Made by a program: the position numbers and the translations under genes
Shown here: positions 12,299 to 16,414 of the stretch, in pieces
Position numbering within the stretch: position 1 is the stretch's first letter
How the letters are laid out: every line of letters begins with the position of its first letter
The notes under the pieces: model-generated
Databases searched by the model: none
Seen by the model: only the letters and a program-made list of their open reading frames with translations
What the model was told of the DNA's origin: nothing
DNA from: Escherichia phage Eeyore
Sequence record: PP925821.1
Strand: one strand, 5' to 3'
Length of the DNA: 45,057 bases

Positions 12299-13153
12299 AT
12301 GAGCACTAAATTAACGGGTTACGTTTGGGACGCTTGTGCCGCTTCTGGCATGAAGCTGTCCAGCGTTGCCATCATGGCGCGTCTGGCTGACTTCAGCAGT
12401 GATGAAGGGGTTAGCTGGCCTTCCATTGCTACCATCGCGCGCCAGATTGGTGCTGGTGAGAGCACGGTTCGCACAGCCATATCACAGCTGGAAAAAGACG
12501 GTTGGTTAACCCGCCAGCAGCGCCGTAAAGGCAACCGAAATGCATCGAACGTTTACCAGCTCAATGTTGCGAAATTGCAGGCTGCTGCCTTTTCTCACCT
12601 GTCAGATTCTGACGCATCAAAATCTGATGCCTCAAAAACCGACGCGTCAATATCTGAGGCATCAAAAAACGATGAGAAAGGCGGTTTTCACCCGTCAGAA
12701 TCTGGGGGGGATCCGTCAGTAAATACAACTACTGATCCATCAGTTAAAAAACCTTCTTGTCCGGTTGCGCCGCAACCAGACCCTGAAGTGACGATCACCG
12801 ATAACGCCATCCTGGTTCTGAATCATTTGAACCTGGTTAGCGGCTCACGATACCAAAAATCAAAAACTTCTCTGGAAAACATCCGTGCTCGTTTGCGTGA
12901 AGGTTACACCGTTGGCGACTTACAGCTGGTGATTGACCTTAAGCATGAGCACTGGAATGGCAATGACGTGCAGTACCAGTACATGCGCCCTGAAACGCTA
13001 TTTGGCCCGAAAAAGTTTGAGGGTTATCTGCAAAGCGGGATCCGTTGGGACAAGAAGGGGCGTCCACCGCGCGAAAGCTGGGGTGAAAAGAAACACGATC
13101 CGATGAAGTTCGGTCCGGTTGATACCAAGATTCCAGAGGGGTTCAGAGGATGA
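12299..13153 (+). CDS. Replication initiator (lambda O-like) with internal ori iterons
   Basis: 284 aa; N-terminal winged-helix (SIATIARQIGAGESTVRTAISQLEKDGWL), Ser/Asp-rich linker encoded by the iterons, conserved C-terminal domain; SD AAGGA. Confidence 0.7.
   Translation: MSTKLTGYVWDACAASGMKLSSVAIMARLADFSSDEGVSWPSIATIARQIGAGESTVRTAISQLEKDGWLTRQQRRKGNRNASNVYQLNVAKLQAAAFSHLSDSDASKSDASKTDASISEASKNDEKGGFHPSESGGDPSVNTTTDPSVKKPSCPVAPQPDPEVTITDNAILVLNHLNLVSGSRYQKSKTSLENIRARLREGYTVGDLQLVIDLKHEHWNGNDVQYQYMRPETLFGPKKFEGYLQSGIRWDKKGRPPRESWGEKKHDPMKFGPVDTKIPEGFRG
12608..12669. repeat. Putative replication origin iterons (4 direct repeats of ~15 bp)
   Basis: tctgacgcatcaaaa / tctgatgcctcaaaaa / ccgacgcgtcaata / tctgaggcatcaaaaaa inside the O-like gene, followed by an AT-richer stretch, as in lambda ori. 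Confidence 0.55.
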
Positions 13154-14484
13154 ATGAAAATAAATACTGCCGCGCGCTGGCTGAACTGCGTTCAAGACCA
13201 GCCCACGAGTTGAAAGAGGTCGGCGATCAATGGCGCACTCCGGATCTGTTGTTTTGGGGTATCAATGCGATGTTCGGCCCTCTGGTGTTGGACCTTTTTG
13301 CCGACGACAGCAACGCGAAGTGCCCAGCATGGTATACGGCTGAAGATAATGCCCTGACGCAGGATTGGTCAGAGCGTCTGGCAGAACTCGGTGGTGCCGG
13401 GTTTGGCAACCCGCCTTACAGCCGCTCTCAGTACCACGACAAGCAGGCCGTCACCGGAATGACCCACATCATTAACCACGCTATGGCAATGCGAGAAAAG
13501 GGTGGTCGGTACGTTTTTCTCATTAAGTCTGCGACGAGTGAAACGTGGTGGCCGGAAGAGGCAGATCACGTCACATTCATCCGTGGCCGAATTGGTTTCG
13601 ATCTTCCTACATGGTTCGTGCCGAAAGACGAAAAGCAGCAGCCCACCAGCGCATTTTTTGCTGGCGCTATCGTGGTCTTCGACAAAACATGGCGGGGTGA
13701 GCGTTTCAGTTACATCAACCGTACCGACCTGGAGGCCAAAGGCCGTGCTTCGATGTTGCTGGCCCAGTTTGCAGTGGGAAGAACGCAAACTGATGCGGCG
13801 CCGGAGCTTGATGCTGAGGTAGTGCCGGAGAAATTAGAGGCAGAACTGCCATTAACCCAAAAAGCCATTCTGGAAACCAGTGGTGTTGAGGCTTGGGCCT
13901 GTGTTGTCGCGGCGTTCGGCGAGAAAGATGAGTACACCTTCAGCGAGTCAAAGTTTGGTCATACCTGGGCTGCCGACTCTTTGGAAGACCCTGAATTTAC
14001 CAATGTTTCACCGCTGACGATCGACAGAGCGAAAAAGCTGATCAGCGAGAGCATCCTGGTGGGTGTTAATGCATGGCTGGAAACATTGCGCTTTGATAGC
14101 GATGACGTGAAACAAGACATATCAGAGCGGTTACGCACGGTTGCCGTTGAGTCTGCGAAAGAATACGGCATTAACCACAGTGAATTCATCGCGACCATGG
14201 AAAGCCTGGATAAAGCCAAATGGTCAAATATTCGGGGGATCCGCGCCCATGTCCGTGAGACGCAGGAATCAAAGGACAAGGCGTTAAACGAATCGCGCGT
14301 TTGGCCTCTTGAGGTTGGACTGGTGTTTAACCAGATTGAAGGGGCTGACGCTCTACCTGTTTCACAGCAGAACAAGCTGAAAGCCAATATCAACCAGCTG
14401 TGGCTCGAACGTATGCCGACGAGTGAAATTATCACGACCGCTGGTGGTCTCTTCAACAGCATGCAGGGGGCCGTCAATGCGTGA
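13150..14484 (+). CDS. Phage Dam-family N6-adenine DNA methyltransferase with ~260-aa C-terminal extension
   Basis: 444 aa; WRTPDLLFWGINAMFGPLVLDLFA...GFGNPPYS (NPPY motif IV); start overlaps O stop (ATGA). Confidence 0.75.
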   Translation: MNENKYCRALAELRSRPAHELKEVGDQWRTPDLLFWGINAMFGPLVLDLFADDSNAKCPAWYTAEDNALTQDWSERLAELGGAGFGNPPYSRSQYHDKQAVTGMTHIINHAMAMREKGGRYVFLIKSATSETWWPEEADHVTFIRGRIGFDLPTWFVPKDEKQQPTSAFFAGAIVVFDKTWRGERFSYINRTDLEAKGRASMLLAQFAVGRTQTDAAPELDAEVVPEKLEAELPLTQKAILETSGVEAWACVVAAFGEKDEYTFSESKFGHTWAADSLEDPEFTNVSPLTIDRAKKLISESILVGVNAWLETLRFDSDDVKQDISERLRTVAVESAKEYGINHSEFIATMESLDKAKWSNIRGIRAHVRETQESKDKALNESRVWPLEVGLVFNQIEGADALPVSQQNKLKANINQLWLERMPTSEIITTAGGLFNSMQGAVNA

Positions 14485-16414
14485 AATTATCGTTGATAAC
14501 TTTGCTGGTGGCGGCGGCGCGAGTACCGGCATTGAACTGGCGATCGGGCGTAGCGTGGATATCGCTATCAACCACGACGAAAACGCTATTGCTATGCATA
14601 AGACGAATCACCCTGACACGCTGCATTATTGCGAGTCGGTGTTTGACGTTGACCCAAGCGCAGCCACCAGCGGTAAACCTGTCGGCCTGGCCTGGTTTAG
14701 CCCTGACTGCCGCCACTTTTCCAAAGCGAAGGGCGCTAAGCCAGTTAAGAAAGAGATCCGCGGGCTGGCGTGGATTGTCCTGCGCTGGGCGCTGGCAGTA
14801 CGTCCCCGAGTCATGATGCTGGAGAACGTCGAAGAATTTAAGACATGGGGCCCGCTGCTCGATGAAGAATTACGCCCGGATCCTGAGCGTGCTGGTGAAA
14901 CATTCGAGGCATTTGTCGGCATGCTGTCGACTGGTATCGCGGCGAATCACCCAGCACTGGCTGAGGTTTGCGAATTTCTTGCCATTGAGCCGCACGGCCT
15001 GCAGGCGCAACAGCTGACCGCCGGGCTTGGCTATGAGGTCGATTATCGTGAGCTGCGCGCTTGTGACTACGGCGCGCCGACGATCAGAAAGCGTTTCTTC
15101 ATGGTCATGCGCTGTGACGGCCGCAAGATTCATTGGCCTGAAGCGACTCATGGGGATCCAAAATCACTGGAAGTACAAAGCGGCAAGCTGGCGCCATGGC
15201 GTACCGCGGCGGAGTGCATTGACTGGAATATCCCGGCCCGGTCCATCTTCGATCGCAAAAAGCCGCTGGCGGAAAATACGCTCAAACGTATCGCGCGCGG
15301 CATCCAGCGCTTTGTTATCGAAAGCGCATCACCTTTCATCGTGAAGTGTAACCACACCACGACGAAAGGAGGTTATGACTGTTTCCGCGGGCAATCGTTG
15401 TTAGAGCCATTGCAGACCATCACTAAAAAGCATGGCTACGCGCTGGCGGTACCGCATCTTACTAAATTCCGCACTGGGGCCACCGGGCAGCCAGTGACCG
15501 AGCCGGTTCCAACTGTCACCGCTGGTACGTCGGCGCGCCCTGGCGGGAATGGGCATGCGCTTGGCGTAGTTGAGGCCGCCCTGACACCGTTCCTGGCTGG
15601 CAATGGCGGCAGTGAGTACCAGGCAAAGCCGCGCCCACTGGATAAACCCGCTCATACAGTCCTCAAGCAGTCCCGCGCGTGCGTGGTTGCGCCGGTCATC
15701 GCCCGCCAGTTTGGTGCCAGTGTTGGGCACAGGGCTGACGAACCGAGCGCGACGATTACTGCAGGTGGTGGCGGTAAGTCGCAGCTGGTAACTCCAACAC
15801 TCATCCAGATGGGGTACGGCGAACGCCCAGGGCAAGAACCGCGTGTTCTTCAACTGAATAACCCGCTCGGCACGGTCACTGCTGGTGGTAATAAGTTTGC
15901 AACGGTGAGCGCGTTCCTGGCGAAGCACTATGGTGGGAATTACACGGGGCCGGGTGTTGGTATGGATGAGCCTGCCCACTCAGTCACTACTGTTGATCAC
16001 CACGCGGTAGTTGCGTCGCACCTGGTGAAGCTGCGCGGAACCTGCCGCGACGGTCAGACCATGGACACACCTATGCCGACGATTACCGCTGGTGGCCAGC
16101 ACGTTGGCGAGGTCCGGACATTCCTCGAAACCTACTGCGGTGATAGCGAGGATGAATGGCTGGTGACGATCGAGGGGGTTAAGTACCAGATCGTCGATAT
16201 CGGAATGCGCATGCTTCAACCGCATGAGCTTTATAAGGCGCAGGGCTTCCCTGACGGCTACGTTATCGATCAGGACTATCGCGGCAATCGTTACGCCAAA
16301 GACAAGCAGGTAGCGCGCTGCGGTAACGCAGTACCGCCGCCGTTCGCTCGTGCGCTGGTAGAAGCAAATCTTCCTGAATTATGTGTAAATCAAAAGGCGG
16401 GTGCAGCCGCCTGA
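14477..16414 (+). CDS. DNA cytosine-5 methyltransferase (Dcm-type) with large variable region
   Basis: 646 aa from ATG 14477 (ATGCGTGA overlap); motif I FAGGGG, catalytic FSPDCRHFS, motif VI MLENVEEF, R-x-R (TIRKRFFMV), C-terminal GNAVPP. Confidence 0.8.
   Translation: MREIIVDNFAGGGGASTGIELAIGRSVDIAINHDENAIAMHKTNHPDTLHYCESVFDVDPSAATSGKPVGLAWFSPDCRHFSKAKGAKPVKKEIRGLAWIVLRWALAVRPRVMMLENVEEFKTWGPLLDEELRPDPERAGETFEAFVGMLSTGIAANHPALAEVCEFLAIEPHGLQAQQLTAGLGYEVDYRELRACDYGAPTIRKRFFMVMRCDGRKIHWPEATHGDPKSLEVQSGKLAPWRTAAECIDWNIPARSIFDRKKPLAENTLKRIARGIQRFVIESASPFIVKCNHTTTKGGYDCFRGQSLLEPLQTITKKHGYALAVPHLTKFRTGATGQPVTEPVPTVTAGTSARPGGNGHALGVVEAALTPFLAGNGGSEYQAKPRPLDKPAHTVLKQSRACVVAPVIARQFGASVGHRADEPSATITAGGGGKSQLVTPTLIQMGYGERPGQEPRVLQLNNPLGTVTAGGNKFATVSAFLAKHYGGNYTGPGVGMDEPAHSVTTVDHHAVVASHLVKLRGTCRDGQTMDTPMPTITAGGQHVGEVRTFLETYCGDSEDEWLVTIEGVKYQIVDIGMRMLQPHELYKAQGFPDGYVIDQDYRGNRYAKDKQVARCGNAVPPPFARALVEANLPELCVNQKAGAAA

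Follow-up and report, generated by a model that had tools for sequence, protein, structure and literature searches.

Escherichia phage Eeyore (sequence record PP925821.1; 45,057 nucleotides, the whole of this analysed stretch being referred to below as the window) carries two adjacent DNA methylase genes downstream of a replication initiator gene, the first encoding a Dam-family N6-adenine methylase and the second a C5-cytosine methylase whose variable region holds seven tandem modules resembling target recognition domains (TRDs). Both genes are members of known families, and RefSeq already gives them the right names; as orphan methylases are, moreover, a standard means of phage counter-defence, the finding as first stated is an ordinary one. 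The interesting part is rather the multi-module architecture of the C5 enzyme and the modular variation that its sequence relatives display across the family. The most likely function of the pair would be self-methylation during the lytic phase, conferring broad anti-restriction. The explanation proposed here as a whole, that is to say orphan methylases acting in lytic growth together with a seven-module, multispecific C5 enzyme that provides broad anti-restriction, is one in which our confidence slightly outweighs our doubt. The wider proposition, namely that the family consists of hyper-multispecific C5 methylases bearing between one and 12 shuffled, autonomous mini-TRDs of hundreds of types in many bacterial phyla, is put forward more tentatively, as its prospects fall somewhat short of even.

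The gap between motifs VIII and IX of the C5 enzyme measures approximately 360 amino acids (aa), in agreement with the first-pass annotation (made from the sequence without database searches), in which the variable region had been described as unusually large. Within this gap, modules A to G (32–48 aa each) follow one another, and each displays the same pattern of an acidic residue, a proline, x-x-Thr-(Ile/Val), a variable and often glycine-rich loop, and a hydrophobic strand that ends near a glycine. The mean pairwise Smith-Waterman score between the modules is 31.6, compared to 18.1 ± 0.84 for shuffled sequences (z of approximately 16; 0 of 1000 shuffles reached the observed value), and equal-sized pieces of the catalytic domain, included as a control, score 17 in the same pairwise test. 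Two sub-types are apparent, composed of modules A, C and F and of modules B, D, E and G, respectively, and given this division the functional unit is proposed to be either one module or a neighbouring pair. Additionally, phrog_23072 matches the array in three stretches. At the DNA level, repetition is limited to the P..TITAGG core (at positions 15737, 15857 and 16064); since this core alone is still repeated in the DNA, the duplication of the modules appears to be old. A Pfam search of the variable region at E<=5 found no match, searching the PDB by sequence, whether with a profile of 77 modules or with the variable region itself, returned nothing meaningful, and no usable model of the C5 enzyme was obtained with AlphaFold2 (AF2) (predicted local distance difference test (pLDDT) score of 44, from an alignment of 25 sequences that are at least 83% identical).

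Comparison with close homologues (78–99% identical) revealed that the array is conserved to the same degree as the catalytic lobe (90.2% and 88.5% identity, respectively), which suggests that all seven modules are under purifying selection. Among proteins that are at least 78% identical, the module architectures ABCDEFG, ABCDFG, ABDEFG, ABCDEFF'G and ABCDEFxG occur. Module C is lost in the ABDEFG forms (609–664 aa) and module E in the ABCDFG forms (605–629 aa), while forms of 679–695 aa carry an additional module behind F, in a slot that is shared by two unrelated versions. In the C5 family at large (sequences in the thousands, with 2583 clusters at E<1e-30 and the 50% identity level), 150 representatives at this level contain from one to 12 modules per protein, and the variable region lengthens by approximately 32 aa with each module (r = 0.83). 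Furthermore, 966 modules taken from 152 proteins fall into 312 clusters. The modules of the query are only 23–33% identical to one another, yet each is 60–83% identical to modules in other proteins, where these counterparts stand at different ordinal positions. This combination of low internal and high external identity points to old, distinct module types that have been recombined, rather than to a recent expansion of a repeat.

The catalytic core that accompanies the array bears all the marks of a C5 methylase. PF00145 matches with an E value of 3.6e-20 (73.1 bits versus a cutoff of 22), and the motifs are present in canonical order: I (FAGGGG), IV (SPDC), VI (ENV), VIII (TIRKR), IX (RMLQPHELYKAQGFP) and X (GNAVPPP). 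These catalytic motifs, which were aligned to PDB entry 3g7u and to DNMT1, are invariant across 25 homologues, and the catalytic cysteine of motif IV is preceded by an aspartate, not a proline. The mechanically called open reading frame (14423–16414) starts at a GTG codon, while the near-identical copies in RefSeq and GenBank start at the ATG at position 14477; the protein is 645 aa long from that ATG and not 646 aa as first given, its identification as a C5 methylase being otherwise borne out. The earlier label 'Dcm-type' holds for the C5 chemistry but goes too far beyond it: the NCBIfam model TIGR00675 (dcm) scores 52.7 bits, over aa 5–121 only, and because this is below the cutoff of 100.65 the enzyme is not considered a Dcm equivalent. 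It sits in a 99%-identity cluster of 1680 member sequences. A second, smaller variable site of the C5 enzyme is located in the catalytic lobe, where homologues P0014, P0060, P0073 and P0079 possess 21–24 extra aa between motif VI and the next helix (window equivalent approximately 14860). Relatives of more than 900 aa (P0251, P0310, P0318, P0327, P0334, P0339 and P0374) contain Hint/LAGLIDADG inteins near motif IV, and the idea that family members of this size are Dam-C5 fusions was rejected in favour of such intein-bearing versions.

Judged by alignment, the C5 enzyme is a full-length homologue of the large phage 5-methylcytosine (m5C) methylases of relaxed specificity. It is 42.5% identical over 706 columns (E 4e-166) to Pyei1_p05 of Paracoccus phage vB_PyeM_Pyei1, which carries eight modules, and 41.8% identical (E 1e-156) to ARM81ld_p31 of an Aeromonas phage, which carries five. 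Pyei1_p05 is in turn approximately 69% identical to JCM7686_0772 and JCM7686_2655 (PMC6536676), two Paracoccus aminophilus prophage enzymes whose genes of approximately 2.1 kb were expressed in E. coli (PMC3925955). When challenged with 28 restriction enzymes, DNA was partially protected by these two methylases against 16 of them (PMC3925955, Additional file 8), the protected sites being AGCT, GGCC, CCWGG, GCGC, CCGG, CCSGG, ACGT and CAGCTG among others, while CGCG, GGNNCC, CCWWGG and CATG were left unprotected (PMC3925955). The ARM81 enzymes (ARM81ld_p31 and ARM81mr_p29) were likewise reported to be relaxed (PMC5537653). The pair had initially been ascribed an anti-restriction or an epigenetic function, and since homologues that are approximately 40% identical protect DNA in vivo (PMC3925955), anti-restriction is favoured over a purely epigenetic role. 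A published primer for JCM7686_0772 led to a Paracoccus siganidrum orthologue, used as a proxy, which has eight to nine modules and lies beside an NPPF adenine methylase. The Paracoccus and Aeromonas enzymes, studied by Dziewit, Radlinska, Decewicz and co-workers, share the SPDC form of motif IV and the tandem modules with the enzyme described here and, like the present pair, they are orphan and prophage-borne, and are often encoded beside an adenine methylase and near replication genes. They differ from it in the level of identity (approximately 40%), in the host clade (Enterobacteriaceae in the present case) and in the set of modules. The tandem-module architecture is not described in the Paracoccus and Aeromonas literature that was checked, the 2016 J Gen Virol paper on ARM81 falling outside this coverage.

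The array also recalls the methylases M.SPRI, M.Phi3TI, M.H2I and M.Rho11sI of Bacillus phages, in which contiguous short units are similarly placed between motifs VIII and IX of one core. Both these units and the present modules possess a Thr-(Leu/Ile/Val) core and a glycine-rich loop, and in both cases the genes belong to temperate phages, lack a nuclease partner and differ between related phages in the units that they carry. The module core (P-x-x-T-[IV]-T-A-G-G) resembles the SPT[IL]TT..G.G cores that the Bacillus enzymes carry repeatedly in their variable regions, and a hidden Markov model (HMM) derived from the seven modules of the query yielded at best 6.3 bits against these enzymes, at precisely the SPT[IL]TT cores. 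The TRDs of the Bacillus enzymes comprise roughly 40–50 aa, and the papers of Trautner reportedly give three to four of them as the usual number per enzyme. For M.SPRI, three specificities are documented. More generally, the TRDs of C5 methylases read their target by means of two loops, with a conserved Thr-Leu dipeptide at Loop 2 (PMC2790894), and the module core resembles this dipeptide and loop. There are, however, clear differences to the Bacillus group: motif IV reads SPDC here, as opposed to FPCPTFS in M.Phi3TI and SPCQSFS in the other three Bacillus enzymes; the Bacillus enzymes are 439–503 aa in length, compared to a seven-module protein here with relatives that carry up to 12; and multispecificity, which is proposed from sequence in the present case, has been genetically proven for the Bacillus enzymes. 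The architecture is thus, on these comparisons, of the multispecific-methylase type, yet not homologous to the Bacillus group, and a 2025 review credits multi-TRD arrays to Bacillus temperate phages only (PMC12707154).

The partner of the C5 enzyme was correctly recognised from its NPPY motif as belonging to the Dam family. PF05869 matches aa 19–199 (E 1.9e-43; 148.5 bits versus a cutoff of 28.1) and is covered from profile position 3 to 167 of 169, TIGR01712 (phage_N6A_met) scores 203.5 bits versus a cutoff of 97.05, and NPPY occupies aa 87–90 (within GNPPYS, aa 86–91) and is conserved among aligned relatives; on the strength of these matches the protein is a member of the PF05869/TIGR01712 phage N6-adenine methylases. 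The catalytic domain was detected in 280 phage records by tblastn, and is 71–73% identical to the Dam enzymes of Shigella phage SfII, mEp460 and Stx2 phages, with which the present gene also shares the NPPY motif and a slot just past the replication genes. A C-terminal extension of approximately 260 aa had been noted without explanation. This extension is real, although it comprises 245 aa past the Pfam domain, and it can be resolved into parts: the catalytic domain is followed by a conserved helix and a short linker, then by a rare insertion, and finally by a family tail. The tail is 84–98% identical in more than 100 clusters of PF05869 proteins of 291–299 aa, has been seen only behind PF05869 domains, and contains a match to phrog_16025 (aa 383–437). 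The insertion is missing from these common relatives and is present in only a handful of clusters, setting this Dam enzyme apart from most of its PF05869 relatives by a predicted helical segment of approximately 150 aa. According to the alignments, therefore, the tail is standard for the lineage and the insertion alone is unusual. The AF2 model of the Dam enzyme consists entirely of helices from aa 290 to 440 (pLDDT 80–93), although its known catalytic domain is poorly modelled (approximately 30), and a Foldseek search with this model against BFVD and the PDB returned nothing below E = 0.07. Neither the insertion nor the tail gave a Pfam match at E<=5, and the extension was without a match in a PDB sequence search.

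Two candidate links between the Dam extension and the C5 enzyme were considered and rejected: the tail is not regarded as a dock for, or an element dependent on, the C5 enzyme, as phage LLS possesses the tail and lacks the C5 gene, and the insertion does not travel with the C5 gene, as Citrobacter phage phiNP pairs that gene with a 293-aa Dam enzyme. With a tail in the absence of the C5 gene in LLS, and a C5 gene beside an insertion-free Dam in phiNP, neither element is tied to the C5 enzyme. The Dam gene is labelled 'phosphoadenosine phosphosulfate reductase' in the records of Escherichia phage Flotzy (L001 6001–7335), Chi-like phages and Stx2 phages, a mislabel that appears to have been transferred from PHROG 33262, a fusion family with a C-terminal Dam domain. 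In a further Dam relative (P0122, 205 aa) the catalytic domain is missing, while the tail is retained together with one half of the insertion. On a contig of 1.3 kb (P0134), the Dam tail reads through in frame into the N-terminus of the C5 enzyme, representing either a natural fusion or a sequencing frameshift. The Dmt protein of phage P1, which Lobocka et al. are said to have described in 2004 as a fusion of Dam-like and C5-methylase-like domains, offers a likeness in that an adenine and a C5 methylase are joined in one phage, as they are here by an overlap of the two genes and in P0134 by in-frame fusion. Unlike Dmt, however, the enzymes of the present phage are two separate proteins, and P1 is not among the matches listed in either tblastn search.

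The window is that of a lambdoid temperate phage, and its early-right operon has the order cro, cII, O-like initiator, Dam, C5, Ant, DUF968 and Q. From the O-like gene to Q, neighbouring genes overlap or abut in a head to tail manner. The placement of the pair in the replication module and the coupling of its two genes, both of which had been claimed in the first-pass annotation, are upheld by this arrangement: the stop codon of the O-like gene and the start codon of the Dam gene overlap as ATGA (13150–13153, as read from the sequence), while the Dam stop codon (TGA, 14482–14484) and the C5 start codon (ATG, 14477) overlap by 8 nt (ATGCGTGA). A consensus scan of the plus strand between positions 10900 and 19573 detected no sigma-70-like promoter, and the first strong terminator-like hairpin on that strand lies at 18987, i.e. 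3' of Q. The lack of such a promoter, combined with a terminator only past Q, fits a repressor-controlled early-right operon that is expressed in lytic growth, and judging from gene order and the consensus scans, methylase expression is probably confined to that phase. The methylase region of 3.3 kb is 98% identical to that of Flotzy, and is found with the same identity in prophages of 12 of 5426 complete E. coli genomes, where the RefSeq names of the products are 'phage N-6-adenine-methyltransferase' and 'DNA cytosine methyltransferase'. A helicase or helicase-loader gene is absent 3' of the O-like initiator (12299–14484), the Dam gene being situated in that slot; in Salmonella prophages with a C5 gene that is 79% identical (L012 1320–6004), the same slot is taken by a DnaB helicase.

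In the mechanism that we propose, the pair would be expressed from the early-right (pR-type) operon in lytic growth, and replicating DNA would be methylated before it is packaged. The Dam enzyme would most likely finish the GATC methylation that host Dam leaves undone on fast-replicating phage DNA; a phage-encoded Dam is of value in a Dam+ host as well, given that approximately half of the GATC sites of lambda DNA, and no more, are methylated by host Dam before packaging (PMC3299994). The seven modules of the C5 enzyme would represent alternative recognition elements that serve one active site, each acting alone or together with its neighbour, and from the sequence we infer one module (or pair) per specificity. 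The enzyme would accordingly act on several distinct short cytosine motifs, thereby weakening a large number of m5C-sensitive restriction systems together, and the gain, loss or exchange of modules would retune the spectrum of protection. A 2025 review has set out, in general terms, why an orphan methylase would be expressed only when the phage is leaving the cell (PMC12707154).

A number of points weigh against this mechanism. Methylation data start at relatives that are, by sequence comparison, approximately 42% identical to the query, and Phi2LM21_p23, which is 38% identical, was inactive in E. coli (PMC5537653). Protection was partial everywhere, and it was taken by the authors of these assays as relaxed specificity, later summarised as a CC motif, rather than as a set of discrete specificities. 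The identification of the modules as putative TRDs draws on their position and size and on a short motif; a family-wide module HMM (built on match columns only) gave no match at E<=0.01 in SPR, phi3T, H2 or rho11s, and the module profile had no significant match to any solved structure. The presumed restriction of expression to the lytic phase is deduced from gene order and consensus scans, and the GATC specificity of the Dam enzyme is presumed on the basis of the name of the family and of those phage Dam enzymes that have been characterised. To our knowledge, 7–12 functional TRDs on one core would go beyond anything demonstrated. Finally, heavy m5C modification exposes a phage to modification-dependent nucleases of the McrA/McrBC type, a likely cost that may account for the patchy distribution of the C5 gene.

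The main rival to a multispecific enzyme, which we consider unlikely, is that the modules are structural repeats of one large DNA-binding domain belonging to a relaxed C5 methylase (with a preference for e.g. CC or GC), which would still afford broad anti-restriction. Such a composite domain accords with the descriptions of relaxed specificity and with partial protection at every sensitive site, and the strand-loop-strand pattern that is common to the modules in the low-confidence AF2 model points in the same direction. However, the loop sequence is distinctive and strongly conserved within each module type, and the types are reused in other positions and combinations. In close relatives, moreover, individual modules have been removed, added or exchanged cleanly while the rest remains undecayed, which is more natural for autonomous units. 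The alternation of the two module sub-types along the array, suggestive of cooperative pairs, again sits well with a composite domain, and non-specific phage adenine methylases provide precedents for it (PMC12707154), but the homologues leave CGCG, GGNNCC, CCWWGG and CATG unprotected and their activity is thus not non-specific.

That the methylases are mainly regulatory, governing replication, packaging or lysis-lysogeny timing in the manner of P1 Dam at pac, with anti-restriction as a side effect, seems distinctly improbable to us. The location of the pair directly 3' of the replication initiator, and its coupling to the initiator gene, agree with such a role, and Decewicz et al. speculated that methylases so placed take part in replication (PMC5537653). 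The C5 gene is nevertheless dispensable on the near-identical backbone of LLS, and is confined to 12–15 of the 5426 complete E. coli genomes. For the Dam gene the case is stronger, as it is kept by LLS without the C5 gene, and as P1 packaging requires Dam methylation (PMC12707154), although the adenine-methylase partner of the C5 gene swaps between unrelated families (PF05869, MT-A70 and others), contrary to what a site-specific circuit would lead one to expect. Additionally, it is hard to see what regulatory purpose would be served by an array with as many as 12 variable units. A regulatory role is therefore possible for the Dam enzyme, but is an unlikely explanation of the C5 gene.

Very little credence is given to the view that the C5 enzyme has little or no catalytic activity towards DNA in the natural host and that the array has a non-methylation role (e.g. 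in DNA binding or as a decoy). While motif IV reads SPDC instead of the canonical PCQ, this form is common to the active Paracoccus lineage (L007 and Pyei1_p05 sequences), and the failure of the homologue Phi2LM21_p23 to give protection in E. coli is to be set against catalytic motifs that are all invariant across homologues.

As previously noted from the sequence alone, no nuclease partner accompanies the pair. Searches of the neighbouring proteins with Pfam, PHROGs and PADLOC identified no restriction or nuclease family, and no restriction nuclease was found in four other contexts (the E. coli CX21 prophage, LLS, the Salmonella prophages and phiNP). Closer analysis of the DUF968 protein, whose family is called 'HNH endonuclease' in PHROG 96, was negative, with an HNHc_6 match of E 0.005 only, which is below the cutoff, and no PADLOC match. 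DUF968 occurs in 170 phage records, very few of which contain these methylases, and it is 97% identical in LLS, where the backbone is near-identical, the Dam gene is present and the C5 gene is absent. Being common in phages without these methylases, DUF968 is not the cognate nuclease, and this candidate was rejected on account of its independent distribution and the lack of a PADLOC match. In phiNP the gene order is O, a 293-aa Dam, a 575-aa C5, a gene in the DUF968 slot, and Q; the gene in this slot, between C5 and Q (L015 4908–5975), bears the name of a further 'antitermination protein Q' in the record, and may be a misnamed DUF968 homologue. In the Salmonella prophages the order is an HTH_36 initiator, DnaB, an MT-A70 adenine methylase, a 251-aa unknown protein and a 690-aa C5. 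The proposal that the pair supplies the modification function of a restriction-modification system, or of a comparable defence system, with the DUF968 protein or an unrecognised neighbour as its nuclease, is scarcely credible in spite of the PHROG 96 label and the sub-threshold HNHc_6 match, given the occurrence of DUF968 mostly in phages without these methylases and in the C5-less LLS, the Salmonella prophages that have the C5 gene without an adjacent DUF968, the negative PADLOC defence-system search, and the fact that a repressed early operon would expose the lysogen to its own nuclease at induction.

The first-pass annotation was right as to the two adjacent methylases, but had missed their internal anatomy and a third methylase; the phage encodes three methylases in all. 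This third enzyme is of the beta-class N6/N4 amino-methylases, is encoded outside the coupled pair, in the late region, where its gene follows Q and precedes the lysis genes, and occupies the same place in the CX21 prophage, in LLS and in phiNP. It matches MTase_II in PADLOC (E 7e-146) and bears an HTH_3-like insert at aa 167–197, its closest solved relatives being 8urk and M.RsrI. Between Q and this gene there is a stretch of low GC content (19001–20316; GC 0.40, compared to approximately 0.54 around it), which looks like a moron-type insertion site. It contains an open reading frame without a family match (19098–19655), and a strong terminator-like hairpin was called on its minus strand (20087–20116), the flanks of which are A/T runs such that it could work bidirectionally. 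The coordinates of all features are listed in Table 1.

Table 1. Positions of the methylase genes, their parts and neighbouring genes in the window.
Feature	Position	Strand	Remarks
Integrase	4021–5214	minus	lambdoid temperate phage window
cI-type repressor	10360–11055	minus	
cro, then cII-like gene			between the cI-type repressor and the O-like gene in the listed gene order
O-like replication initiator	12299–13153	plus	PF09524 (Phg_2220_C), E 7.7e-23; PF13730 (HTH_36), E 1.5e-9
Phage Dam-family N6-adenine methylase gene	13150–14484	plus	444 aa
Dam catalytic domain	13150–13779	plus	aa 1–210
Rare Dam insertion	13843–14292	plus	aa 232–381, approximately 150 aa; second half predicted helical
Dam C-terminal tail	14293–14481	plus	aa 382–444, 63 aa
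C5-cytosine DNA methylase gene	14477–16414	plus	645 aa; PF00145
C5 catalytic lobe, motifs I–VIII	14477–15121	plus	aa 1–215
Tandem TRD-like modules A–G	15389–16165	plus	aa 305–563; seven modules, 32–48 aa each
Module A	15389–15484	plus	
Module B	15485–15628	plus	
Module C	15629–15724	plus	
Module D	15725–15844	plus	
Module E	15845–15952	plus	
Module F	15953–16051	plus	
Module G	16052–16165	plus	
C5 C-terminal part, motifs IX (RMLQPHELYKAQGFP) and X (GNAVPPP)	16166–16411	plus	placed by DNMT1 and 3g7u alignments and invariant columns
Ant/KilAC antirepressor	real start 16429		downstream of the C5 gene
DUF968/YdfU-family protein	17118–18179	plus	PF06147, E 6.8e-71
Antiterminator Q	18180–18893		followed by lysis and morphogenesis genes
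Third methylase, beta-class N6/N4 amino-methylase	20317–21369	plus	PF01555, E 5.9e-44; 350 aa

If the hyper-multispecific reading of the family is true, it would generalise and greatly extend the paradigm established with the Bacillus phages and would explain the 'relaxed specificity' of the Paracoccus and Aeromonas enzymes. If modules, or pairs of modules, do specify motifs, the family would constitute a natural library of very small, portable recognition units for cytosine methylation, and would explain how Gram-negative temperate phages may be protected against many restriction systems by a single gene. Natural test material is at hand in Flotzy and phiNP, which carry the C5 gene, in LLS, which is without it, and in variants that differ by exactly one module. 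The proposal would furthermore have a bearing on the 5-methylcytosine calls made in methylomes of enterobacteria whose prophages have been induced, as well as on host-range engineering for phage therapy.

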